NCBI GenBank assembly: GCA_023130975.1
Contig: JAGMAD010000005.1
Location: 22,933 to 86,932 of the forward strand
Origin: Candidatus Parcubacteria bacterium
GTDB lineage: Bacteria; Patescibacteriota; Minisyncoccia; Minisyncoccales; JAGMDC01
Reading direction: 5' to 3'
DNA length: 64,000 nt
Shown here: piece by piece, positions 30,531-54,587 of the stretch
Position numbering within the stretch: position 1 is the stretch's first letter
How the letters are laid out: the number at the start of each line of letters is the position of its first letter
Translations under genes and position numbers: made by a program
The notes under the pieces: generated by a model
Database searches by the model: none
What the model was told of the DNA's origin: nothing
What the model saw: the letters and a program-made list of their open reading frames with translations, nothing else

Positions 30531-31691
30531 ATGTATTTTGTTCATCCCCAAATAAATTTAAACAAAAAAAATTTTCAGAAAATATTCTCTTCTTTTTTCC
30601 GAACTCCTGATTCAAAGGGCTTAAACAAAAAGCTCTCTTCTTTCTTTCCGGAAAAGCAGATTGTTTTTACTGACATGGGCAGGTCGGCTTTTCAAATCAT
30701 AATTGAAAAAATGAATTTAAGAAACAGCCAGATGCTTTTTCCTGCTTACATCTGCGATATCTTCCTGCCCATTTTTAAGAAATATAATATTAAACCGATT
30801 TTCTTAGATGCTGATATTAAGACCTTTAATTTAAAAATTGAAGAAATGGAAAAGAAAACCAGTCCCCAAACCAAATCTATTTTTGTTTCCCATATTTACG
30901 GCCTGCCTAATAACATAAATAAGATATTGTTTATCGCTAAAAAACATAATTTAAAAGTCATTGAGGACTGCGCCCATAGTTTTGGGATAAAAAAGGGAAA
31001 AAGATATTTAGGAAATTTTGGTGAGGCCTCTTTGTTCAGTTTATACAAATTTCTTCCGGTTGCTAGAGGAGGAATGCTGGTCTGTCCCAAGAACTGGAAA
31101 ATAGATTTAGAAGAAACATCTTTCAGTCCCCGTGATTTTATTTCTTTCTTAAACCATTTTCCTTTTTGGGCTTTTCTGTTTAAAAAATTTGGCGGCTTCG
31201 TTTCTCCAAAAATAATAAGAAAAGAAAAGCTGTCTAAGACCGGAGGAATTAACAAGGTCTCTTTGAATCTATTTTCTTCTCTCTTTGAAGAACACCAGAA
31301 AAATTTAAAAAAAAGAATAAATCTTGGCTTGTTTTTTCAAAAAGAACTTAAAAATTTAGGCTTTGAGACCCGGGAAGGAAAAGAGAATGGTTTTTGCTAT
31401 CTTTCTGTTTTAATGCCAAAAAAATTGAGAGAAAAAAGAGATGATTTTATAAAAGGACTGAGAAAAGAAGGTGTCCATTGTACAAGAATGTGGTATAGTC
31501 CTATAGTTCTTAATCCGGAAGCGCAAAAAAAATACAAATTAGACCTAAATGAATTTCCAAATACCATAGAGATAAGCCAAAGAGTTATTAATTTTCCTTT
31601 GCAGGATTTCTTTCAGAAAAAAGACATAAAAGAAATGATTGGAAAAATAAAGAAAGTGCTTAATTCACTTGACCCCGTAGTGAAAATTTGA
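30531..31691 (+). CDS. DegT/DnrJ/EryC1/StrS-family protein (aminotransferase-like)
   Basis: PAYICDIFLPIFKKYNIKPIFLDAD, VSHIYGLP, VIEDCAHSFG and SLYKFLPVARGG. The last codons and the stop lie inside a palindromic element. Confidence 0.6.
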   Translation: MYFVHPQINLNKKNFQKIFSSFFRTPDSKGLNKKLSSFFPEKQIVFTDMGRSAFQIIIEKMNLRNSQMLFPAYICDIFLPIFKKYNIKPIFLDADIKTFNLKIEEMEKKTSPQTKSIFVSHIYGLPNNINKILFIAKKHNLKVIEDCAHSFGIKKGKRYLGNFGEASLFSLYKFLPVARGGMLVCPKNWKIDLEETSFSPRDFISFLNHFPFWAFLFKKFGGFVSPKIIRKEKLSKTGGINKVSLNLFSSLFEEHQKNLKKRINLGLFFQKELKNLGFETREGKENGFCYLSVLMPKKLREKRDDFIKGLRKEGVHCTRMWYSPIVLNPEAQKKYKLDLNEFPNTIEISQRVINFPLQDFFQKKDIKEMIGKIKKVLNSLDPVVKI

Positions 31692-31902: not shown

Positions 31903-33783
31903 TCAATTAAGCAAAGAATATGTTGGGACAAGTTCTTTTAGAATGCTTTTTATTTCTTTCTGGTCAAATTTTTTGATTGCTTTTTCTAGCCTTCTTAAAC
32001 TTTCGTTTATTTTCTCTTTATCTGCTTCTGAAAGTTTTGCCATAAAAATTTTTTCATTTTGAGTAGCAATAGTTCCTTCTTCAGCGGTTAAAATTTCTTC
32101 AAAAAGTTTTTCTCCTGGTCTAATACCTGTAAAAACAATGGGAATATCTTTATCCGGTTCATGACCGGAAAGACGAATTAATTCTTTTGCTAAGTCCACA
32201 ATCTTTATTGGCTTCCCCATATCTAAAACAAATACCTCTCCACCTCTTCCCATAGCTCCGGCTTGCATTACTAAAAGACAGGCCTCAGAAGTAACCATAA
32301 AATATCTTTTCATCTCGGAGTGGGTAATTTCTATCGGACCTCCTCTTTTTATTTGTTCTCTAAAAATAGGTATTACGCTTCCCCGGCTGTTTAAAACATT
32401 ACCAAATCTCACAGAAATAAATTTTGTAGAATTTTCTTGATTTAGAGACTGACAAAGCATCTCTCCCACTCTTTTTGTTGCACCCATTATTGAACTTGGG
32501 TTCACTGATTTGTCAGTAGAAATAAAAATAAATTTTTCTACATTATGCTTTAGGGCAACATCAGCAATAGTTTTTGTCCCAAAAATATTATTTTTCACTG
32601 CCTCATCCGGTTGACTCTCCATTAAGGGAACGTGCTTATAAGCAGCAGCGTGAAATATTATCTCTGGCTTAAATTTTTCAAAGATCTGTATTATTTTTTG
32701 TTCATCTCTGATGTCAGCGACAATAAAGGAAAAATTTAGTGTTGGAAATTTGTTTTTAATTTCTTCTGAAATATTAAAAATCCCTGTTTCATCTTGATCT
32801 AAGAGCAAAAGAAGATATGGTTCAAATTTAGCTATTTGACGACAAAGTTCAGAACCAATAGAACCAGCAGCACCAGTAATTAAAACACGTCTTCCTTGAA
32901 TAAAACTTGTAATAGCTGCTTTATTCAAAGATACTTGTTTTCTTCCTAATAAATCCTCCATTTGAACATTTCTTAAATCTCTAATAGAAACTTTTCCATT
33001 AATTATTTCTGTAATTGAAGGAATAATCTTAATATTTTTAAGACCTGACATTCTTCCAACTTCTACTGCTTTCTTTATAATACTTGAATCTGCTGAAGGT
33101 AAAGCGATAATTATTCCTTTAATATCTTGCTTTTTCACTATATCCGGAATATCTTTAACCTTTCCTAAAACACGGACACCGTGAATTAAATTTCCCTGTT
33201 TTAATTCATTATCATCAATAAAACCAACGGGCTCATAAGGAGCGTCAAAAGAACTCTGAATGCTTCTTAAAATTTGTTCACCGGCATCACCTGCCCCGAC
33301 AATTAAAGTTTTCTCTTTGCCTCTTGTTTCTTTTTTTTGAAAAAGATAAAAATAGATTCTTTTAGAAAAACGAGCAGCTCCGCAGAATATAAAAATTAAA
33401 AAATAACTAATAAAAAGAACAGAACGGGGAAAACCGCTAAAAACCGTGTAATCCTTTAAAACAAAATAAAAAGCTGTTAAGAGTAAAAAACTCAAGATTG
33501 TAGCCTTGAATAAAGAAATTAACTCTTCCAAACTCACATAAGACCAACTGAAATAATAAAGCTTAAAAAAGTAAAAAATAGGAATAGTAATTATTAAAGC
33601 TAAAATGATAATTCCTCCAATGTTTAAAAAATAACAGTCAGGTATTTGTCCCTCAAACCTAATCAAAAAAGCCAACCAAACTGAAAAAGAAATCAGTATA
33701 ATATCACTAACTAAAAAGAAAATCATTCGCTTTTTCGGCGTCCGCTCCATTAATTTTTTTAGCAAGAATTTAAAATCAGGCAT
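31903..33783 (-). CDS. Membrane-bound NDP-sugar 4,6-dehydratase (CapD/PglF/WbpM family polysaccharide biosynthesis protein)
   Basis: 626 aa with four N-terminal TM segments, two Rossmann motifs (IVGAGDAGEQ and ITGAAGSIGSEL) and a Polysacc_synt_2-like core. Confidence 0.88.
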   Translation of the reverse strand: MPDFKFLLKKLMERTPKKRMIFFLVSDIILISFSVWLAFLIRFEGQIPDCYFLNIGGIIILALIITIPIFYFFKLYYFSWSYVSLEELISLFKATILSFLLLTAFYFVLKDYTVFSGFPRSVLFISYFLIFIFCGAARFSKRIYFYLFQKKETRGKEKTLIVGAGDAGEQILRSIQSSFDAPYEPVGFIDDNELKQGNLIHGVRVLGKVKDIPDIVKKQDIKGIIIALPSADSSIIKKAVEVGRMSGLKNIKIIPSITEIINGKVSIRDLRNVQMEDLLGRKQVSLNKAAITSFIQGRRVLITGAAGSIGSELCRQIAKFEPYLLLLLDQDETGIFNISEEIKNKFPTLNFSFIVADIRDEQKIIQIFEKFKPEIIFHAAAYKHVPLMESQPDEAVKNNIFGTKTIADVALKHNVEKFIFISTDKSVNPSSIMGATKRVGEMLCQSLNQENSTKFISVRFGNVLNSRGSVIPIFREQIKRGGPIEITHSEMKRYFMVTSEACLLVMQAGAMGRGGEVFVLDMGKPIKIVDLAKELIRLSGHEPDKDIPIVFTGIRPGEKLFEEILTAEEGTIATQNEKIFMAKLSEADKEKINESLRRLEKAIKKFDQKEIKSILKELVPTYSLLN

Positions 33784-34903
33784 TTAATATTCGTTTTAAG
33801 GTCTTTACAATATAATTTATTTCTTTTTCTGTTAAATTATTATAGAAAGGCAAAGCAATGGTTCTCTGGCTAATACTTTCAGTAATTGCAAAATCACCGG
33901 GTTTATAGCCAAACTTTTTTCTATAAAATGGCTGTAAATGAATTGACTGAAAATAATCGCTGCATTGAATTCCCTTTCTTGCCATTTTTTCAATAATTTT
34001 ATCTCTGTCTTTTTTTGAGTATTTTTTTTGAAGCTGAACCACATAAACAAACCAACTTATTTTAACATTTGAAGTAATATATGGAATTTTAATTTCAGAA
34101 AAATTTTTTAATTTCTTATTATACATTTTAGCCACCTTATCCCGTTTTTCAAGAATTTTGTTTAGTCGTTCCATTTGAGTAACCCCTATTGTTGCACAAA
34201 TTTCCGGCATTCTATAATTGTAACCTAATCGAATATGCTCTAACCATTTTCCGTCTTTATTTCTACGTCCCTGATTAGCCATACTGCGACATAAATCTGC
34301 AATTTTTTTATTATTCGTCAAAACTACACCTCCTTCACCAGCAGTAGTGATTTGTTTATTTGGATAAAAAGCAAAAACCCCTGCATCCCCAAAAGAACCA
34401 CACTTTTTACCTTTGTACTCCGAACCCAATGCTTCGGCTGAATCCTCAATTAAAAAAAGTTTATGTTTCTTAGCAATTTTTTCTAATTGAGCCCAATTTG
34501 CTGGATGACCAAAAGCATCTATTGCTAAAATTGCTTTAGCTCTTTTAGTAATTTTTTTTTCAATTTTTTCTGGATCTATATTTAAGGTCAGGGGGTCAAT
34601 ATCTACAAAAACCGGCTTTGCTCTTTCAAATAAAATACAATTTGCAGAAGCAATAAAAGAAAAAGGAGTAGTGATTACTTCGTCTCCTTTTTTGATTCCC
34701 AGTGCCCGAATTATTAAATGCAAAGCACTGGTTCCGCTATTTACTCCAACAGCATATTTCACTCCTGTATATTTAGCAATTTTCTTCTCAAATTCCTCTA
34801 ATTTCGGTCCTAAAGATAAAACAGGTGTTTTTAGAACCTCTAAAACCGCCTTTCTTTCTAAATTTGTAATATCCGGCTGTGCCAAAGGAATTTTCCAGTT
34901 CAT
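33776..34903 (-). CDS. DegT-family PLP-dependent sugar aminotransferase
   Basis: VNSGTSALHLII, IEDSAEALG, and FYPNKQITTAGEGG with the PLP lysine present. Confidence 0.88.
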   Translation of the reverse strand: MNWKIPLAQPDITNLERKAVLEVLKTPVLSLGPKLEEFEKKIAKYTGVKYAVGVNSGTSALHLIIRALGIKKGDEVITTPFSFIASANCILFERAKPVFVDIDPLTLNIDPEKIEKKITKRAKAILAIDAFGHPANWAQLEKIAKKHKLFLIEDSAEALGSEYKGKKCGSFGDAGVFAFYPNKQITTAGEGGVVLTNNKKIADLCRSMANQGRRNKDGKWLEHIRLGYNYRMPEICATIGVTQMERLNKILEKRDKVAKMYNKKLKNFSEIKIPYITSNVKISWFVYVVQLQKKYSKKDRDKIIEKMARKGIQCSDYFQSIHLQPFYRKKFGYKPGDFAITESISQRTIALPFYNNLTEKEINYIVKTLKRILNA

Positions 34904-43951: not shown

Positions 43952-44809
43952 TTATGTTTTACCTACGAAAGATTTATAACCTGGGTGGCCAAAAATTATT
44001 CTTCTTAATTTCGAAAAAATCGGTTTCAATGCTATTCGAAAAGGTAAAAAAGTATAAATATATTGGGCCCAACCAAGAATATAAGCTTTCCAGAAATTGG
44101 GATAATCATTTCGGTATTTTTTTCTTAGCTTGATATTGAGCCTTGCGTTATGCTGTATATTATAATTAGATTTATTTTGTCGGTCCTGCAAATAACGAAC
44201 AAAATATTGCTGAAAATTATAAAATTTGCCTATTTTCCCAAATCTCAGCCATAAATCCCAATCTTCAGAAAAATCAAGACTTTCATCAAACCCACCTACC
44301 ATTTCCCAAATTTCTTTTTTAAATACCACAGTACTATGAACAAAGGAATTGTTTAGAAGCATCGAATTTTTAAGATCTTTATCATTTTCCGAAAGTAAAT
44401 GCCTTGAGGTTTCTTTTCCAGTCGCATCCACCCTAATTACTCCTCCGCCGACTGCCACATAACTGGGATTGTTCTCAAGAAATTTAACTTGTTTTTCTAA
44501 TTTTCCTTTGTCGCACCAAAAATCATCATCGTCTAATCGAGCAATATATTTACCTTGTGCATTTTTCACTCCCTTATTTAAACTCTTAACAAGCCCGATA
44601 TTCGGCTTATTGGTCATACACTTCACTCTTGCATCTTTTCTTTTAAATTCAGAGATAATCTTAGGAGTTTCATCTGTCGAACCGTCATCAATGATAATAA
44701 GTTCAAACCCCCTATAAGTTTGACTTAGAACACTTTCTATTGCTTTTCTTATATATGTTGCTCTATTATAGGTCGGTAAAATAATAGAAACGAGTAATGG
44801 GTAGCTCAT
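43952..44809 (-). CDS. Glycosyltransferase family 2
   Basis: VSIILPTYNRA...LIIIDDGSTDET...ARLDDDD. The ATG at 44809 gives an ATGA overlap with the upstream gene. The ORF-track start at 44830 is rejected. Confidence 0.85.
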   Translation of the reverse strand: MSYPLLVSIILPTYNRATYIRKAIESVLSQTYRGFELIIIDDGSTDETPKIISEFKRKDARVKCMTNKPNIGLVKSLNKGVKNAQGKYIARLDDDDFWCDKGKLEKQVKFLENNPSYVAVGGGVIRVDATGKETSRHLLSENDKDLKNSMLLNNSFVHSTVVFKKEIWEMVGGFDESLDFSEDWDLWLRFGKIGKFYNFQQYFVRYLQDRQNKSNYNIQHNARLNIKLRKKYRNDYPNFWKAYILGWAQYIYTFLPFRIALKPIFSKLRRIIFGHPGYKSFVGKT

Positions 44810-45621
44810 GATATTTTTGTTGCAACGCAACCATAATTTATTGTCCGATAATCGCCACGAAGATCTGGAAGTTGATATTCAATTTTAAAGCCTATATTCT
44901 CAAGAAAATTCTGAAAGCTTTTTTTATCTTTTGTGATATCCCTGTGTTTTTCATCATGGCCCCAGAGATGATAGAGATCTGTCCAAAGAAGTAGAATGCA
45001 CCCCGGTTTTGCATATCGCGCAATGTTTTGAAGGACCAAATAGGGATTTCCACAATGATCAAGCGTATTGCGACATATAATACAGCCGTCAATACTCTTG
45101 CCGAGTCCATCAATAAATATCTCAGCCGGCTTTTCATACAACACAAGATTAGATGAAAAGAGTTCGTTAGCACCGAACTCCGATGCTAATTTTTCATATT
45201 GTAAAATCAGGGGATCAATGATGATTCTTTTTTTAACCCAATGCCATAGCAGTAAGTATCCTGCGGGCCCGGAACCCACCTCAAGACAGGTCTTGTTATG
45301 AATGGTATCAGCAAAAGTTCGCCACTCACTTTCATTATTATGGAAAAAATCGCTAATTACATTATGCCCGTTAGCATCGTGAGGACCGGACCAAAAATCT
45401 CCTTTTTGTTTAGATAAAAGAAACTCTCCATAAAACCATTTAAGGTTATCATGTGCCCAATTGTATGCACTACGAAATTCGTAGATTTGGGCTTGTTTAT
45501 GATTAAAAACTCGTGGAATCCAAAATATTTTCCTGCATTTACGTAGGATATAAACTGTCCATTTTGGTAACCATGTTCTTGCCCATCTTTTTATTTTCAC
45601 TATAGTTCGATACTTAGTCAT
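44806..45621 (-). CDS. Probable SAM-dependent methyltransferase
   Basis: Motif I-like CLEVGSGPAGYLL. The call is otherwise weak. Confidence 0.45.
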   Translation of the reverse strand: MTKYRTIVKIKRWARTWLPKWTVYILRKCRKIFWIPRVFNHKQAQIYEFRSAYNWAHDNLKWFYGEFLLSKQKGDFWSGPHDANGHNVISDFFHNNESEWRTFADTIHNKTCLEVGSGPAGYLLLWHWVKKRIIIDPLILQYEKLASEFGANELFSSNLVLYEKPAEIFIDGLGKSIDGCIICRNTLDHCGNPYLVLQNIARYAKPGCILLLWTDLYHLWGHDEKHRDITKDKKSFQNFLENIGFKIEYQLPDLRGDYRTINYGCVATKIS

Positions 45622-45622
45622 A

Positions 45623-46372
45623 TTAAGATTTTAACCACAACCAAGGTTCTTTGGTTTGAAATAATCCTAATGAATTTAAATAATTTCCTGCATTAAACCC
45701 TATCTTAAAATGCATCGGGTGTTTGATTTCCTGAATGTTTAAATTTGTTATAATTAATTTCCCATTGTTGTTTAAATGGCAAGCTAAATCTTTCAATAAC
45801 TTCTGAGGATCGCTCACATGTTCAATTACATCAATACATAAAATAGTATCATAACTTTTAGATAAACTTTCCTTAGTTAAATTTATTGCCTCTATTCCGT
45901 ATCCCCTTTTTTTAAATAACCACTTTGCAAATTCAAATGTTTTTCCATAAATATCTGCATATGTTACATTTAACCCCTTTTTTGCAAGTTCAAGACATAG
46001 GTCGCCAATTCCTCCCCCATAATCTAAAATATCTCCTTCACATAGTTTAATTACATTGTTCCTGAGATCTCTTTGCGCTCTCAACATATGCCAATATGCC
46101 AAATCAAATATGTAATAAGGTGTGAGTTCATAAAATTTTTTAATTTCTTCCTCTGTCTTTGGATTTAGGAAGTACCAAAAATCATTATTTAATTTTTTTC
46201 CTGATTTAAGCATCCAAATAATTTTTTTTTGATCCAAAGCAAAATATTCTGCTAAATCTTTTACAATATTTTTATCCAACCTAACCTTTAAACTCCATCT
46301 ATGATACAGCCATGCAAGAACTTTTTGAATTGGTTTTGGGAATTTTTTTCCTATTTTAAGAATTATTCTCAT
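45623..46372 (-). CDS. Class I SAM-dependent methyltransferase
   Basis: ILDYGGGIGDLCLELAKKG...DTILCIDVIEHVSDP. Confidence 0.7.
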   Translation of the reverse strand: MRIILKIGKKFPKPIQKVLAWLYHRWSLKVRLDKNIVKDLAEYFALDQKKIIWMLKSGKKLNNDFWYFLNPKTEEEIKKFYELTPYYIFDLAYWHMLRAQRDLRNNVIKLCEGDILDYGGGIGDLCLELAKKGLNVTYADIYGKTFEFAKWLFKKRGYGIEAINLTKESLSKSYDTILCIDVIEHVSDPQKLLKDLACHLNNNGKLIITNLNIQEIKHPMHFKIGFNAGNYLNSLGLFQTKEPWLWLKS

Positions 46373-46376
46373 GTTT

Positions 46377-47444
46377 TTATCCTATAAAATTAAATATTTC
46401 ATTAAATCTTTTTTCGTAAGTATGATTTCGCAAAGTACGCTCATAACCAGCCTGAGCAATAAGCTCTCTTTCTTTATCGTGTTTTAAATAATATCCTATT
46501 CTCTCAATAAGATCGTTGACATTTTTATAAATAATAATTTCCTTATCATTTTCATAGTAATCACCCAAATTGTCAGCATTGCCAGTTACTAAAAAACCTT
46601 TACACCCTGGAATTTCAAAATTTCTAGTCTTGATTTGTTCTCGTTTCTTTCCTAAAAGCGATTTTGAATTATCAATCCAATAACGAGGATTGCCTATTTG
46701 AATTGATTTATGCTTTTTTCTTTTTAAAAATATCTTAGCAATTGATTTTAAGGTATTGCCGCTAGAACTTTTTGTTAAATTAAGATTAATTTTGCTCTGA
46801 GAGAATATCCTTATCATCTTTTCCTGAGGAACTTTTCCGTTCGGCCATCCTCTGCCCCAACATTCAATTTTTACTCCTGCTTTTTTCATTTTCTCTATAA
46901 TCTTTTTTCTATTACTATGGGGTTGACCAACAAAGCTAACATCGTAAATCTTTGGCAGCTTAAGAGGTTTATACAAAAAATGATTACAGGCCCATTGACT
47001 TTTAATAACATTCTTATAGCCAATTTTATGATATTTTTGAATTGCTTGAGAATCAGTAGTTACTATCCAATTAAAACAGGGAGCCCAATATTTAGAATAA
47101 TTATCAAATCGCCAATGGTCATCATTAAACCAGTTCAATGTTACGGTCCCACTTTTATTAGTAATTTCTCTTATCGTTTCTTTTTTTATCTCATCAGTGA
47201 ACAGAGAAAAGAAACAAATATCCGGCTTTTCTTTAGAAACGGTTTCAATAAGCATTTTGTTCATTTTATCCCTTCCTTTCTCAAGCATTATCTTATCAAA
47301 TGGAAAATGGAGCACCTGATACCGCCTATTATTTATTAAAGAATCATAGAAGTTGCAGTGTTCATAACTAAGACCTCTTTGAGGATCACCGTAATCATAT
47401 TTAAATGCGATATATAAAATTTTCATCTCTTTTTTGGTTAACAC
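46377..47444 (-). CDS. CgeB/YkvP-like glycosyltransferase family protein
   Basis: The C-terminus RNFEIPGCKGFLVT...ELIAQAGYERTLRNHTYEKRF resembles the Glyco_trans_1_2 family from memory. Confidence 0.55.
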   Translation of the reverse strand: MLTKKEMKILYIAFKYDYGDPQRGLSYEHCNFYDSLINNRRYQVLHFPFDKIMLEKGRDKMNKMLIETVSKEKPDICFFSLFTDEIKKETIREITNKSGTVTLNWFNDDHWRFDNYSKYWAPCFNWIVTTDSQAIQKYHKIGYKNVIKSQWACNHFLYKPLKLPKIYDVSFVGQPHSNRKKIIEKMKKAGVKIECWGRGWPNGKVPQEKMIRIFSQSKINLNLTKSSSGNTLKSIAKIFLKRKKHKSIQIGNPRYWIDNSKSLLGKKREQIKTRNFEIPGCKGFLVTGNADNLGDYYENDKEIIIYKNVNDLIERIGYYLKHDKERELIAQAGYERTLRNHTYEKRFNEIFNFIG

Positions 47445-47450
47445 GCCTTT

Positions 47451-48752
47451 TCATAAATTTTTTAAGAATCGTTTCTTGAGTGTGTGTTTTTCTAAAAAAT
47501 CTTGAAGAACCTTAGTGATAAACTTTTGAGCATCTAAATCAATAGCTGGATGGCAACCAATAAAAAATGCTTGGTCCCGTAACCAACGCGACACTGGAAG
47601 ATTTCCTACTACTCGTTTAGGAACCATTCGAAAACCAGGTTGGTCAGGCAAACAGCCGGCAAAAAAGGGTCTGGTCTCAATATTGTTTTTCTCTAAATAC
47701 TTAACTAATTGAAGACGGGAAAAAGGCGCCTCTTTTTTAATTACTATCAGAAACCCATAATATGAGTGAAAATAATCTGGTAATTTTTCTGGTAGTTGAA
47801 TAAAATCTTTATATTTTTTTAAATATTTCACAAAAAAACTTACAATTTTGCGTCTTTTTTGGTTTAGATAATCTAATTTTTTTAATTGCTCTATCCCTAA
47901 AGAAGCAGCAAGATCTGTCATTCTTACATTATATCCAGCTCTTTCAAAAATATATTTTTTATCATAGTTTTTTAAATATTTATCGTAATAAGAAAATCTA
48001 TTAGAGGGAGCAATATCCTCGCTAAATCTACCGAACTCACGAAGTGAACGAACTATTTTTGCATAACGAGGATTATTAGTTAAGACAATTCCCCCTTCAC
48101 CAGTGGTAATATTATGAGCTACATAAAAACTAAATGTTGCTAAACCACCAAAACTTCCGACTTTTCTATTTTTATAGCTCGCTCCATGCGCTTCGCAGCA
48201 ATCCTCAATTATTTTTAATTTGTAATGTTTGGCAATTCTTAAAAGCTCGGATAAGTTGGCCGGATGACCCAAAGAGTGAACTATTATTAAAAGTTTAGTT
48301 TTGGAAGATATGGCTTTTCGCACCTCGTTCGGGTCAAGATTATAAGTCAGAGGATCAACATCAACATAAACTGGTTTCAGCCCAAGTTGAATAATTGGTG
48401 AGGCAACTGAAGAGAAAGTAGCGGCTGGTAATATAACCTCATCACCTCTTTCTAACTCTCCTGCTTCTAATAAAGTGGCTATGGCTAAAATATTGGCTGA
48501 AGTGCCGGAATTTACTGCGATACCATATCGAGTACCAATATATTCAGAAAAAGCCTTTTCAAACTCTTTCGTTACTGGTCCCAATGAGAGTCTACCGCTA
48601 AGTAAAGTAGCAATTAAATGATTGGCTTCATGATAGTCATAAATAGGAGCACTTATCCCAATATAAGTTTTACCTGGTTCAAATTTAGAAGATGGAATTC
48701 GATAAAACTCTTTTACTAATCTATGAATTTTTTTAAGAATAGTTTGCTTCAT
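47451..48752 (-). CDS. DegT-family enzyme with His replacing the PLP lysine: RfbH/ColD-like NDP-4-keto-6-deoxyhexose 3-dehydratase candidate
   Basis: VNSGTSANILA, IEDCCEAHG, and SFYVAHNITTGEGG where aminotransferases have K at the H position. At 433 aa it is of RfbH-like length. Confidence 0.7.
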   Translation of the reverse strand: MKQTILKKIHRLVKEFYRIPSSKFEPGKTYIGISAPIYDYHEANHLIATLLSGRLSLGPVTKEFEKAFSEYIGTRYGIAVNSGTSANILAIATLLEAGELERGDEVILPAATFSSVASPIIQLGLKPVYVDVDPLTYNLDPNEVRKAISSKTKLLIIVHSLGHPANLSELLRIAKHYKLKIIEDCCEAHGASYKNRKVGSFGGLATFSFYVAHNITTGEGGIVLTNNPRYAKIVRSLREFGRFSEDIAPSNRFSYYDKYLKNYDKKYIFERAGYNVRMTDLAASLGIEQLKKLDYLNQKRRKIVSFFVKYLKKYKDFIQLPEKLPDYFHSYYGFLIVIKKEAPFSRLQLVKYLEKNNIETRPFFAGCLPDQPGFRMVPKRVVGNLPVSRWLRDQAFFIGCHPAIDLDAQKFITKVLQDFLEKHTLKKRFLKNL

Positions 48753-48756
48753 AATT

Positions 48757-49752
48757 TTATATTTTAGTTTTAGTGTTGGTTATCATCAGATTAGCTAAAT
48801 CTTTTTTATACCAATCAAAAGTTTTTTTAACACCTTTTTTAATGTCTGTTTTGCATTCATAGCCGGTTAATTTTTTTAAGAGCTTAACATCAGGATATCG
48901 CCTCTTAGTTGAACCTTTTGGAGAATCTTTATAAATAACTTTTTTAGGCCTAAAATCAGCGAGTTTAAAAATCTCTTTGTAAATATCACCTATCTTTGTT
49001 TCTTCACCTCTGCCAATGTTAATAATTTTACTGTCAGTTTTATTGGAAGTAGCAACTTTCCATAGTGCCTCCATTCCATCTTTAATGTAGCAGAAACTTC
49101 TTGTTTCGTTTCTTCCAAAAATTTCAAAGGGGTTTTGCTTTTCAAAAATTCTTTTTATTATTCCGGGAATAACATGCTCATACCCCATCCTTTCTCCGTA
49201 AATATTGTGGAACCTTACGATCGAATACCGAAACCCATATTTTTTAGCTCCATGAATGAAAAGTTGTTCGCCAACAATTTTGCTTCCAGCATAACTCCAT
49301 CTTGGATTAAATACATCTGCTATACTCGTTCGCACCACTTCCGGGGTTGGCAAGGGAAGGTTTTCATTACCACTATAAACTTCTGAGGTTGAAGTAAATA
49401 ATAATTTACCTTTAAAATTTTTAAAGAATTCTATCAAATTAATAGTGGTTTGAAGATTATTTAAAAGTGTATAGTATGGTTTCTCATAAAAAAGACGGGT
49501 TCCACAAACAGCAGCACAATGAAAAATATAATTAAAATTCTTTTCAGAAAGTTTCTTCAACACATCAGGTTTTTTAATATCTTTCTTGAAAAAGAAGACA
49601 TTATTTTTTTTAAGCAATTTAGAAAAATTATTATCTATTTTACCTCTAGATAAATCATCAATAATATAGATTTGTAAATTTTGGTTTTGAGAGAGCAGTT
49701 CTGCTAAATGATAACCTACAAAACCTGCTCCTCCTGTTATTAATGCTTTCAT
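48757..49752 (-). CDS. NAD-dependent NDP-sugar epimerase/dehydratase (extended SDR)
   Basis: MKALITGGAGFVGYHL and YAGSKIVGE (the YxxxK motif). Confidence 0.85.
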   Translation of the reverse strand: MKALITGGAGFVGYHLAELLSQNQNLQIYIIDDLSRGKIDNNFSKLLKKNNVFFFKKDIKKPDVLKKLSEKNFNYIFHCAAVCGTRLFYEKPYYTLLNNLQTTINLIEFFKNFKGKLLFTSTSEVYSGNENLPLPTPEVVRTSIADVFNPRWSYAGSKIVGEQLFIHGAKKYGFRYSIVRFHNIYGERMGYEHVIPGIIKRIFEKQNPFEIFGRNETRSFCYIKDGMEALWKVATSNKTDSKIINIGRGEETKIGDIYKEIFKLADFRPKKVIYKDSPKGSTKRRYPDVKLLKKLTGYECKTDIKKGVKKTFDWYKKDLANLMITNTKTKI

Positions 49753-49756
49753 AATT

Positions 49757-50527
49757 TTAATAAATTGAATCTAAATTAGGATATTTTTTTCTATGTATTT
49801 CATTTGTTTTATTAGTAATAGTAAGAAATAAAAAATGCGGATACTCTTTAAGATAGGCCTGAACATCTTTTGGAAGACAGTGTCCTGCAAAAGCATTTCC
49901 CCATTTTAGATATTTTTGTTTTTTGAAAAAGAAATCTATTACATTTTCCTTTTTAATTCCTTCTTTCTCTAAATTATCACCGAACTCATTAACAAAAGCA
50001 ATTCTCATCGCATTATAGATATTACTTAGATATTTAATATGGCTGGCTTCTTCAGGAGTACAGTAACACAATGGATTAAAATGTTTTTCAAATGGAAATT
50101 TGTCTTCAGTATATCTTCCGACTACAACCATCTCCGGATTTGAAAACTCCTCTACGGCTTTTTTCTCATGTAAAAATTCTACCCAATAGAAATCAAATTT
50201 TAAACCTGCCACTAATCTTGGTAACATTGTGGTTCTTAGAATTATTATCCCTTTGCCCTTTAATCTATTTAACACTTCCGCGATATGTCCAATCTCTTGT
50301 CTGCCATCATCTAAAACCTTATCAGCAATACAGACAATATTAATGCCTGAATCTGGTGATTTTTTGCCAACAACCAACGGAATTTTATCAAAATCCTTCT
50401 CTTGATAAATATTCTCTTTCTGTTGAATGTCATAAGCGATTACATTATAACCTAATCTTTTCAACCCAATACCCGTGGCTTGTCCAACATATCCATAACC
50501 AATGATATTAATCTTTTTAGTATCCAT
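49757..50527 (-). CDS. Short UDP-glucose/GDP-mannose dehydrogenase-family protein (N-terminal and central domains only)
   Basis: INIIGYGYVGQATG Rossmann motif and the catalytic-Cys context AGHCLPKD. At 256 aa it lacks the C-terminal domain. I chose the ATG at 50527. Confidence 0.55.
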   Translation of the reverse strand: MDTKKINIIGYGYVGQATGIGLKRLGYNVIAYDIQQKENIYQEKDFDKIPLVVGKKSPDSGINIVCIADKVLDDGRQEIGHIAEVLNRLKGKGIIILRTTMLPRLVAGLKFDFYWVEFLHEKKAVEEFSNPEMVVVGRYTEDKFPFEKHFNPLCYCTPEEASHIKYLSNIYNAMRIAFVNEFGDNLEKEGIKKENVIDFFFKKQKYLKWGNAFAGHCLPKDVQAYLKEYPHFLFLTITNKTNEIHRKKYPNLDSIY

Positions 50528-52010
50528 AAATTTTTCGCAATAAATTAATTCTAAATAAGAATTTATAAAAAAGGAATAGTGCGGCAAAGTAAACTAATAT
50601 TCCTATAATAATTGTGAGAATAACATTAAGATTATAAACCACAGATTGACTAATAACAACAAACATTATTATGCTGGAGAAAATGCCTATAAGTAGGATT
50701 TTAAATAATCTTGAATCAAAAAGAGAAATAAGCGCAAATCTCTTTGAAAATTCTATTCCTAAGAAGAGTATAACAAGATAAGTTATTACAGCAGCTACCG
50801 CAGCACCATAAAGGCTAAAAATAGGAATTAAAATAAGATTTAAGGCAACATTTGTTATAGCAGCAATTAAATTAATCCAAAGATATTTTTTTTGTTGATT
50901 AAAAACAATTAATATCATTAAATAAGGATTATAAAGAAAATTTATTCCTGCCATTATAATTAAAATTTGAAAGGCAAAAATCGAAGGGGCAAAACTCGAA
51001 CCATAAAGAAAATCAATAATTCTTGGGGCAAGAAACAAACCTCCCACCATTATAGGCATAGCCAAAATAATCATTATTTCCATATAATGATTCCATGCTC
51101 TCTGAAGTTTTTCATTTGATTCTTTAAAAAACTTACTTAAAACAGGAAAAAAACTCATAAAAATCAATGTAGCGGGGATTATAGTAACGCCAACAATTCT
51201 TCGAGCAGCATTATACCAACCGGTTTCAGTAATTTGCCCTAGACAACCCATCATTACCGAAGCCACATTTATGAAAATAGTGCCAAAGACGGCAGCTAAA
51301 CCTAAGGGCCAAGAAAGTTTAAAAAATTTTTGCCAGACAGCTTTGTTCCAGCTTAAATTTAAAGAGTGAATGCGGAAATGAAAAAACAATAGAATAAAAC
51401 TTAAGGCAATTAAATTAGTAAATAAATAGCCGTAACTTAAATTCTCAATCGAAGGAAATTTAAAAAGAATAAAAAGAACTATACTAACTATTATTAGGGA
51501 TTGAAAAATCTTAGCCCCACATTCATATTCCATTCGCTGACGAGCTCGCAAAAAAGCATAAATAATACTAAAAAAATTACTAATTAGAACATAAACTCCT
51601 AAAAGCAAGATGATTTTTTGGATGACAGGATCTGGAGTAATAAAAAATGAACTAATTAGGATTAAAAGCAACGCCCCAATACTTAAAAGAATTTTTAAAG
51701 AAAGGATTGCTGAATATTCTTTTTCGGTTTCTTTATCTCGAGAAAATTCCCGAATAGTAATTTCAGAAAGCCCAAACTCAGAGATAATGGCAAGCATTGA
51801 AACAAAAGATAAGGCAAAAGTAAATTTTCCAAATTCAGTTGCTCCTAAAATCCGAGCGATATAAATAATCAAAATTAACCCTAAAAGGCGAGACACTCCT
51901 TCAGCTGCAGCCAACCAAAAAGTGTTTTTTAAAATCGTTTGCCTAACAGTTTTATTATCAAAGAACAATGATTTCAATGACTTAATATCTGTAAAATTTT
52001 TAATGTCCAT
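50517..52010 (-). CDS. Wzx-type polysaccharide flippase (MOP superfamily)
   Basis: 497 aa with about 14 TM segments. The N-terminus TILKNTFWLAAAEGVSRLLGLILIIYIARILG is typical of Polysacc_synt. Confidence 0.8.
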   Translation of the reverse strand: MDIKNFTDIKSLKSLFFDNKTVRQTILKNTFWLAAAEGVSRLLGLILIIYIARILGATEFGKFTFALSFVSMLAIISEFGLSEITIREFSRDKETEKEYSAILSLKILLSIGALLLILISSFFITPDPVIQKIILLLGVYVLISNFFSIIYAFLRARQRMEYECGAKIFQSLIIVSIVLFILFKFPSIENLSYGYLFTNLIALSFILLFFHFRIHSLNLSWNKAVWQKFFKLSWPLGLAAVFGTIFINVASVMMGCLGQITETGWYNAARRIVGVTIIPATLIFMSFFPVLSKFFKESNEKLQRAWNHYMEIMIILAMPIMVGGLFLAPRIIDFLYGSSFAPSIFAFQILIIMAGINFLYNPYLMILIVFNQQKKYLWINLIAAITNVALNLILIPIFSLYGAAVAAVITYLVILFLGIEFSKRFALISLFDSRLFKILLIGIFSSIIMFVVISQSVVYNLNVILTIIIGILVYFAALFLFYKFLFRINLLRKIYGY

Positions 52011-52016
52011 ATTGTT

Positions 52017-52823
52017 TTAAACTCTCCATTTTCTCAAAGCTCCAGAATACCTCTCCCAGGTTCCGCAGTCTGTCCATCTACCTTGAAATTTCAAAGCGTT
52101 TAATTTTTTTTCTTGGACTAATTTAGGAAAGATATCTGTTTCAATCATAGTGAATTTAGGGACAGTATAACCCGCCTTGACGCGATAGCGAGGCAGGTAA
52201 TTAAAAATTTCCGGAGACAACAAATAAAGCCCTGAATTAATATAGTTCGTAGGCGGATTCCCTGCCCATCCAAATTTTTTCAAAATTTGGGAGGGTGAAG
52301 GTTTTTCCAAAAACTCTTTAACTTTTTCTTTCTCGCAAACTACTACTCCATAATCCTGAGGATGAGGAACCTTTACTAAAGCAATAGTTGCTGGCTCTTG
52401 ATTGCTTTGATGAAAACTTGCCATTTTATTCAAATCTATTTCTTTTAATTCATCACCATTAGTCAAAAAAAATGAACTACTTGAAAGCCAGTCCTTTAAA
52501 AGAAAAACTCCGCCGAAAGTGCCTAATGGTTTTTCTTCCTCAAAAATTTTAATTTTATTTTTAGGATAATATCTTCTTTTCCACCAATCAAAGTCCTCTC
52601 TAAATTCTTTATTGATTAAAACAGCAATTTCCTTGACTCCTTGTTCTCTAAATAAATCAACTAAATAATTGATAATTGGTTTTTTCCTAATAGGAAGTAA
52701 GGGTTTTGGGATTTCCTTTGTTACTGGATATAACCGGGTTCCTTTTCCTCCAGCTAATATTATTGCTTTATAATTTGATAAATTATTTTTTACCATAATA
52801 GACACTGATTTATATTCTACCAC
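52017..52823 (-). CDS. Sugar-phosphate nucleotidyltransferase
   Basis: AIILAGGKGTRLYPVTKEIPKPLLPI signature. The start is ambiguous (52823 or the internal Met at 52796). Confidence 0.8.
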   Translation of the reverse strand: MVEYKSVSIMVKNNLSNYKAIILAGGKGTRLYPVTKEIPKPLLPIRKKPIINYLVDLFREQGVKEIAVLINKEFREDFDWWKRRYYPKNKIKIFEEEKPLGTFGGVFLLKDWLSSSSFFLTNGDELKEIDLNKMASFHQSNQEPATIALVKVPHPQDYGVVVCEKEKVKEFLEKPSPSQILKKFGWAGNPPTNYINSGLYLLSPEIFNYLPRYRVKAGYTVPKFTMIETDIFPKLVQEKKLNALKFQGRWTDCGTWERYSGALRKWRV

Positions 52824-53068: not shown

Positions 53069-53097
53069 ATTATATTAAAAGCAAAAGACCCTGTCAA
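53069..53097 (-). promoter_or_regulatory. Canonical promoter TTGACA-N17-TATAAT, 6 nt from the ATG (leaderless)
   Basis: The minus strand reads TTGACAgggtcttttgcttttaaTATAATaagacaATG. Confidence 0.6.
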
Positions 53098-53627: not shown

Positions 53628-53646
53628 TTAGCTTAGTTAGCTTGCT
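53628..53646. repeat. 19-bp direct repeat copy 1 (TTAGCTTAGTTAGCTTGCT) at the 3' end of the epimerase gene
   Basis: Identical to 54612-54630. It overlaps the epimerase stop codon region. Confidence 0.8.
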
Positions 53647-54587
53647 AACTTATTCCTGAACCACTCCACTGTCTCTTTCAATCCCCTATCTAAATTATAT
53701 TTCGGCTGACAGCCAAGCTCTTTTTTTGCTTTTTTAAAATCTAAACAGCTTCTTTTCTGCTCACCAGGTTTTTCAGGAATATGAATCTCTTTACAATTTA
53801 AATCAGCCAACTTTCTAATTTTTCTAAAAATAGTATTAATACTGGTTTCATTTGCTGTCCCAATATTAAAAACCCCGATTTTGTTTTTCTTCAAAGCCAA
53901 TATATTCGCTTCAACCACATCATTAATATAAACAAAATCCCGGGTTTGTTTTCCATCACCGTTTATTGTTGTTTCTTTACTATTTAGCATTTTATCGCAG
54001 AAAATGGCAATTACTCCTGCCTCTCCTTTTGAATTTTGTCTGGGTCCATAAACATTTGACAAACGCAAAGATACATAAGACAGACCAAAAACTTTATAAT
54101 AATAATTTAAGTATTTATCAAAAACCAATTTTTCAATCCCATATGGCGAAACAGGCATTTCAGGATATGTTTCTGGAGTAGGAATAATATCAGCGTCGCC
54201 ATAAATGGCACCGCCAGTAGAAGCAAAGATTATTTTAGAAGCGAATCTATGCGAACGATTAGGCGAAAGAACGCGAATAAAATTCTGAATTATATTTAAA
54301 GAACCGAGAATATTAATTTTGGCATCTTCAATTGGATCCTCAACTGATTTTCTTAAATCAATTTGAGCCGCTAAATGAAAAACTGTTTCTGGTTTTTCTT
54401 TTTTAAAAACATCGGAAATTTTAGGACTCCTGATGTCCAATTTATAAAATTTGGCTTTAGGATTCAAGTTTTTTTTAGTTCCGGTAGATAAATTATCAAT
54501 CACCACCACTTTATGATTTTCTTTGATTAATCTATCTACTAAATGACTTCCGATAAAACCAGCTCCCCCAGTGACTAATATCTTCAT
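53637..54587 (-). CDS. NAD-dependent NDP-sugar epimerase (GalE-like extended SDR)
   Basis: MKILVTGGAGFIGSHLVDRL, and SPYGIEK (the YxxxK motif). Confidence 0.88.
   Translation of the reverse strand: MKILVTGGAGFIGSHLVDRLIKENHKVVVIDNLSTGTKKNLNPKAKFYKLDIRSPKISDVFKKEKPETVFHLAAQIDLRKSVEDPIEDAKINILGSLNIIQNFIRVLSPNRSHRFASKIIFASTGGAIYGDADIIPTPETYPEMPVSPYGIEKLVFDKYLNYYYKVFGLSYVSLRLSNVYGPRQNSKGEAGVIAIFCDKMLNSKETTINGDGKQTRDFVYINDVVEANILALKKNKIGVFNIGTANETSINTIFRKIRKLADLNCKEIHIPEKPGEQKRSCLDFKKAKKELGCQPKYNLDRGLKETVEWFRNKLAS

Follow-up and report, generated by a model that had tools for sequence, protein, structure and literature searches.

A His-type, Fe-S-free DegT-family protein of a Parcubacteria bacterium and a possible pathway to nucleotide-activated 3-deoxypentose

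The 64,000-nucleotide stretch of a Candidatus Parcubacteria bacterium analysed here (the window, to which all positions refer) contains on its reverse strand an open reading frame (47451..48752, ATG start, 433 amino acids) that encodes a DegT-family protein with histidine in place of the PLP-binding lysine. The protein lacks three of the four Fe-S ligands of the dehydrase E1, and belongs to a clade, here called AHN, whose genes lie in a conserved cassette. It is predicted to be a His-type, Fe-S-free NDP-4-keto-sugar 3-dehydratase. We give a probability of about 0.5 to the reading that this PMP/PLP-dependent 3-dehydratase is fed by a uronate-decarboxylation route and yields an NDP-3-deoxypentose.

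The protein matched the Pfam family DegT_DnrJ_EryC1 (PF01041) with 330 bits. Residues 208-221 are SFYVAHNITTGEGG (window 48090..48131), and the CAT codon of His213 (48114..48116, reverse strand) replaces that of the PLP-binding lysine. Through phmmer comparison with the PDB, His213 was paired exactly with His220 of Yersinia E1 (3bcx) and His188 of ColD (2gms); the PDB also holds the H220K mutant of Yersinia E1 (3bb8). The initial annotation had read a histidine at this site while the neighbouring paralogues keep the lysine, and both observations were confirmed: the motif is AFYPNKQITTAGEGG in 33776..34903 and SLYKFLPVARGG in 30531..31691. The histidine is not displaced by one position with a lysine close by, and zero lysines were found within 15 residues on either side. 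In a 41-sequence alignment this column was His in every dehydratase-type sequence and Lys in every aminotransferase. All 120 of the closest relatives in the database share this histidine (120/120), which is thus a trait of the family, neither a sequencing error nor a chance substitution.

The best PDB matches of the protein were E1 (281 bits) and then ColD (199 bits). The AF2 model (pLDDT 87.9) gave the same order, with E1 as the top fold match (Foldseek TM 0.87/0.90, E = 1e-41) followed by ColD, and ArnB was among the close structural matches. In the neighbour-joining tree the His-bearing sequences split from the Lys aminotransferases at 94/100 bootstrap. Judged by its sequence, the protein falls among the His-type PMP-dependent sugar 3-dehydratases, apart from the aminotransferases; the family assignment proposed earlier is upheld by this split and by the best match to E1 in both sequence and fold, and no clustering with true aminotransferases was seen. 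Its clade joins PDB 9wvy at 80% bootstrap and ColD joins a separate SHH clade at 78%, and E1, ColD and the clade of the protein are mutually ill-resolved, with support of at most 30% for any pairing. The protein is located outside the ColD sequence clade (SFYSHH..T[IM]EGG, RAHGW), in the AHN clade.

Members of the AHN clade were found in Patescibacteria, Omnitrophota, DPANN archaea and marine bacteria, and Patescibacteria were the source of most of the named closest homologues. Since the clade is common in this phylum, the gene is not unusual in a CPR cell, contrary to the earlier view that it would be unexpected there. Clade members are routinely mis-annotated as 'aminotransferase' or 'E1/RfbH', and the JGI automatic names of some homologues are E1 or CDP-6-deoxy-D-xylo-4-hexulose-3-dehydrase. 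The searchable literature revealed nothing useful on RfbH in Patescibacteria or on the Psychrobacter 8vr2 protein.

The gene order 6-dehydrogenase > SDR329 > (SDR) > dehydratase recurs across phyla, SDR329 being the family of the SDR gene adjacent to the dehydratase in the window. An SDR329 orthologue was found in 32 of 49 clade loci, and all 32 contain a dehydrogenase(-like) gene, immediately adjacent to it in 20; the SDR329-dehydrogenase pairing was also found in loci outside the clade. Counted over loci that are not phylogenetically independent, SDR329 lies within three genes on either side of 30/53 dehydratases of the AHN clade versus 4/27 ColD-like ones (Fisher p = 3e-4), and GMD within the same distance of 3/53 versus 14/27 (Fisher p = 5e-6). 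Gene fusions match the reaction order proposed below: SDR329 is fused to the dehydratase (Nannocystis; locus L039), and in P0055/66/106 the dehydratase is fused to an STDR-type SDR. The clade members L010, L021 and L032 are near GMD, which indicates that substrate choice varies within the clade. Colitose pathways were considered for these three loci and not confirmed; their shared neighbour (c24) has 128 amino acids and zero Pfam matches. In some lineages the third SDR is GDP-fucose-synthase-like, which suits a 6-deoxyhexose better than a pentose. The cassette is also present in cultivable organisms, for example Neptuniibacter caesariensis MED92.

In the window, SDR329 is encoded at 48757..49752 (reverse strand). 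Its profile match and invariant motifs are those of an extended, UXS/ArnA-like SDR, and it is proposed to be an NDP-hexuronate 4-oxidase/decarboxylase. The best PDB match of the family profile was human UDP-glucuronate decarboxylase (hUXS1, 208 bits), against 180 bits for UDP-GlcA 4-epimerase and about 160 bits for dTDP-glucose 4,6-dehydratases. As a single sequence the window protein matched a GalE best (118 bits) and passed no NCBIfam cutoff, and a search of its family for telling fusions or curated names gave only generic automatic names. The GlcA decarboxylases are marked by GxxGxxG, T/S-x-E, YxxxK and a conserved Asn and Arg (the ArnA R619 equivalent), and several of them release the 4-keto-pentose (PMC10338323). 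In 23 SDR329 family members GGAGFVG, S-T-S-E124, Y154, K158, N183 and R285 are invariant, and these motifs line up with T-S-E, Y..K, N and 'kRkPD' of hUXS1. The TSE and Arg motifs are present or similar in GDP-mannose and dTDP-glucose 4,6-dehydratases, so the sequence alone is no proof of decarboxylation. We infer that SDR329 is a decarboxylase producing the 4-keto-pentose substrate.

The dehydrogenase of the window cassette (49757..50587, reverse strand) is a short NDP-sugar 6-dehydrogenase-like protein with a probable ATG start at 50527 (256 amino acids). Only the N-terminal and central UDPG_MGDP_dh domains of Pfam were detected; the catalytic core is kept (GxGxVG, EFLHE, K..N and C-LPKD conserved) and the whole C-terminal NDP-binding domain is missing. 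Given this domain loss, the protein alone may not be a competent enzyme. The short form fills the slot of the full-length dehydrogenase beside SDR329 in 10 loci. The solved structures most closely related to the cassette dehydrogenase include CalS8, which acts as TDP-glucose dehydrogenase in an aminodideoxypentose pathway. An assignment as TuaD-type UDP-glucose dehydrogenase was rejected, for the SDR329-adjacent copies form another subfamily, whose nearest relatives are UDP-ManNAc dehydrogenases and CalS8.

Since the dehydratase is accompanied by an NDP-sugar 6-dehydrogenase and a UXS-like SDR instead of a 4,6-dehydratase, the cassette points to a route from uronate through 4-keto-pentose to 3-deoxy-pentose. 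The gene context thus suggests a 3-deoxy-pentose rather than a 3,6-dideoxyhexose as the product. A 3-deoxypentose nucleotide sugar was not found in the searchable literature; the proposal is novel and also without precedent.

The initial annotation had predicted a 3,6-dideoxyhexose branch, which is now disfavoured. For this branch the SDR would be a divergent form of NDP-hexose 4,6-dehydratase, an NDP-4-keto-6-deoxyhexose would be dehydrated by the His enzyme as in ColD to give a colitose-, abequose- or tyvelose-like sugar, and the 6-dehydrogenase would serve another sugar of the same glycan; we consider it possible but unlikely. It is consistent with the use of 4-keto-6-deoxy sugars by every characterised 3-dehydratase (PMC8987622). 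The score of dTDP-glucose 4,6-dehydratases against the SDR329 profile, the GMD near few clade members and the GFS/ColC-like third SDR of some lineages agree with it. The operon also includes a putative sugar-1-phosphate nucleotidylyltransferase (52017..52823, reverse strand, Pfam NTP_transferase 147 bits), which would fit such a branch; its best PDB matches were GDP-mannose pyrophosphorylases (109 bits) and UDP-glucose pyrophosphorylase (98 bits), and with the cytidylyltransferase model it reached 81 bits, where the cutoff is 300. GMD too has the T-S-E triad, which again is compatible with a 4,6-dehydratase.

Against the dideoxyhexose, the SDR329 profile favours the UDP-GlcA decarboxylase and 4-epimerase, and GMD was not among the 60 matches listed for it (the weakest listed had 120 bits). 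The residue preceding the SDR329 Glu is S, N, T or C, and not Asp as in RmlB-type dehydratases. The dideoxyhexose would also leave the adjacency of dehydrogenase and SDR329 across phyla (immediate in 20/32) without explanation, and true coupling to a 4,6-dehydratase, with GMD adjacent, is seen in the ColD-like clade and not in the AHN clade. Within the window we found neither a CDP-glucose nor a GDP-mannose 4,6-dehydratase to serve the dehydratase branch; the CDP-glucose 4,6-dehydratase model, whose cutoff is 278, gave 34 and 71 bits for the neighbouring SDRs. The GalE-like SDR at 53637..54587 was rejected as a 4,6-dehydratase because it matches the UDP-glucose 4-epimerase of T. maritima with 305 bits and carries an STGGAIYG motif. 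It was also rejected as the third SDR, being only 27-30% identical to the third SDRs of the cassettes, and both an opposite-strand gene and a strong promoter-like site lie downstream of it.

Another reading is that the His enzyme is mainly a 4-aminotransferase giving NDP-4-amino-4-deoxypentose, analogous to the ArnB step of the Ara4N pathway. The combination of dehydrogenase, decarboxylase-like SDR and DegT enzyme mirrors Ugd/ArnA/ArnB, ArnB is structurally close, and SpnQ without its reductase transaminates with PLP and glutamate (PMC8987622). We nevertheless hold this activity to be improbable, because the His is strictly conserved, the protein groups with the dehydratases at 94% bootstrap, the same genomes already supply Lys-type aminotransferases (two in this window), and the 3-OH of NDP-4-keto-xylose is available for elimination.

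A [2Fe-2S] motif of four cysteines and dependence on a reductase characterise E1 and SpnQ, while ColD is without either (PMC8987622, review). Only the C193 equivalent of the four E1 cysteines (C193...C251-x-C253-x7-C261) is kept in the window protein, and C251, C253 and C261 map to a Cys-free loop that is five residues shorter. These ligand positions follow the E1 numbering of the alignment, and we take them to be those of Agnihotri 2004. The loop REFGRFSEDIAPSNRFSY (residues 238-255, window 47988..48041, reverse strand, pLDDT about 60) replaces the E1 Fe-S loop RDCYCAPGCDNTC, and its region has 0 Cys in 120/120 closest relatives. A [2Fe-2S] cluster is therefore not possible in this loop. The C193-equivalent Cys is conserved, yet the 41-sequence alignment placed it also in the Fe-S-free ColD.

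The window protein contains four cysteines in total (C185, C186, C367, C400), and these were considered as an alternative Fe-S site. In clade members that share the cassette C367 is replaced by N/T/S and C400 by V/I/T, the equivalent of C186 is also kept in the cluster-free ColD, and no conserved alternative Cys set was found in the 41-sequence alignment. Pfam searches of the 64-kb window detected neither an FNR/E3-like nor a ferredoxin-type ORF, and a signature scan of 80-84 related loci found no such gene. The score against the NCBIfam RfbH model (NF011936) was 382.3 bits, below the cutoff of 423.

With three of the four Fe-S cysteines missing and no E3 gene in the window or the related loci, the RfbH/E1 identity suggested by the initial annotation does not hold; neither the Fe-S motif nor the E3 partner that it had named as checks was found. 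ColD-like, reductase-independent turnover is most likely. A genuine E1/RfbH-type enzyme, with electrons from a reductase encoded elsewhere and an unrecognised metal site or direct transfer, is highly improbable on the same grounds (shortened loop, E3/FNR-like or ferredoxin gene in 0/84 loci, RfbH score below cutoff), although E1 is the best match by sequence and fold, some homologues bear the automatic E1 name, the C193 equivalent is kept (as in ColD) and in a few archaeal clade members a CxCxxC...C loop stands where E1 has its own.

For the 3-deoxypentose reading, the following pathway is proposed. The uronate would come from the NDP-hexose 6-dehydrogenase, present in short form in the window, and the SDR of 48757..49752 would oxidise C4 and then decarboxylate, following the pentose-route logic of ArnA/ArnB and CalS8/CalS9. 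The substrate of the dehydratase is thus most likely an NDP-4-keto-pentose supplied by the two genes immediately upstream, and not a 4-keto-6-deoxyhexose. The C4 keto group would condense with PMP to a ketimine, and His213 would take the C4' proton with expulsion of the 3-OH. Without a [2Fe-2S] cluster and an E3 partner the ene-amine intermediate could not be reduced as in E1; it would most likely be freed by hydrolysis, as in ColD, to give the 3-deoxy-4-keto sugar and ammonia, and an amino acid, for example L-glutamate, would restore PMP by transamination. The NDP-3-deoxy-4-keto-pentose would be converted to NDP-3-deoxypentose, in most lineages by the third SDR, and then built into a Wzx-dependent surface glycan. 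No dedicated 4-ketoreductase adjoins the window cassette, the only other nearby SDR being the GalE-type epimerase. For the clade as a whole we tentatively propose a four-gene pathway (6-dehydrogenase, UXS-like decarboxylase, Fe-S-free His-type 3-dehydratase and a variable reductase) that would lead to nucleotide-activated 3-deoxypentose in many bacterial and archaeal lineages, with a minimal dehydrogenase in Parcubacteria that has lost the nucleotide-binding domain.

The genes of the dehydratase string are tightly packed, with gaps of 1-6 nt or overlaps. The string includes a Wzx-type polysaccharide flippase (50517..52010, reverse strand, Pfam Polysacc_synt 123 bits). Directly downstream of the dehydratase gene, after a 6-nt gap, is a glycosyltransferase-like gene (46377..47444, reverse strand, Pfam Glyco_trans_1_2 110 bits), a candidate transferase for the product. 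Two SAM-methyltransferase-like genes follow (44806..46372, reverse strand, Pfam Methyltransf_23/11/12, gaps of 1-4 nt), of which 45623..46372 is clear and 44806..45621 weak. A perfect sigma-70 consensus (TTGACA, 17 nt, TATAAT; 12/12 match) was found at 53069..53097 on the reverse strand. It is a possible start of the transcription unit and only a hint, for promoter-like sites overall were not above chance.

If the proposal is true, C3 deoxygenation would be linked to the formation of pentoses by uronate decarboxylation, giving a new class of deoxysugar. A 3-deoxypentose, not reported as a glycan building block, would then occur in surface glycans of CPR, DPANN and Omnitrophota, and also of abundant marine bacteria (SAR86, Pelagibacteraceae, Prochlorococcus, Neptuniibacter). 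CPR and DPANN cells depend on cell-to-cell contact with a host, and this would be among the first concrete biochemical leads on their surface glycans. As the pathway comprises only three or four soluble enzymes, the prediction is directly testable in vitro.

Compared with the known systems, the window protein shares with E1/RfbH/DdhC/AscC (CDP-6-deoxy-L-threo-D-glycero-4-hexulose 3-dehydrase of Yersinia and Salmonella) the DegT/AAT type-I fold, the His at the Lys position, 38% identity, and an E1-like N-terminal helix and length of about 430 amino acids. It differs from E1 in lacking the Fe-S loop cysteines, in its separate clade in the tree, and in a context without E3 reductase, CDP-glucose 4,6-dehydratase or clear cytidylyltransferase. 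ColD (GDP-4-keto-6-deoxy-D-mannose 3-dehydratase, colitose) and the C. jejuni GDP-heptose C3-dehydratases likewise have His for Lys, no Fe-S and no reductase. They probably share the mechanism, with PMP-dependent 3-OH elimination, hydrolytic release and regeneration by L-glutamate; formation of alpha-ketoglutarate has been used as an assay for PMP regeneration (PMC10440746). However, ColD is only 32% identical to the window protein, and its clade has SHH..[IM]EGG / RAHGW motifs and pairs with GMD, whereas the AHN clade pairs with the 6-dehydrogenase and UXS-like SDR and the window contains no GMD. PDB 9wvy ('putative NDP-4-keto-6-deoxyglucose-3-dehydratase') is also of His type and without the loop cysteines, but it is 34% identical, sits on a long branch, and has 399 amino acids without the N-terminal extension; neither publication nor functional data on it were found in the literature search.

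The Ugd/ArnA/ArnB (UDP-Ara4N), CalS8/CalS9/CalS13 and AtmS8/AtmS9 (TDP-aminodideoxypentose) routes have the logic proposed here, in which a 6-dehydrogenase is followed by a decarboxylating SDR that releases the NDP-4-keto-pentose and by a DegT enzyme acting at C4. In those routes a Lys aminotransferase gives a 4-amino sugar, whereas here the His-type dehydratase is predicted to make a 3-deoxy sugar; SDR329 and the dehydrogenase also belong to distinct families, and the window dehydrogenase is truncated. Sugar 3-deoxygenation has so far been described through E1, SpnQ and ColD. The AHN clade, E1-like by sequence and ColD-like by cofactor make-up, is a fourth group, large and uncharacterised.

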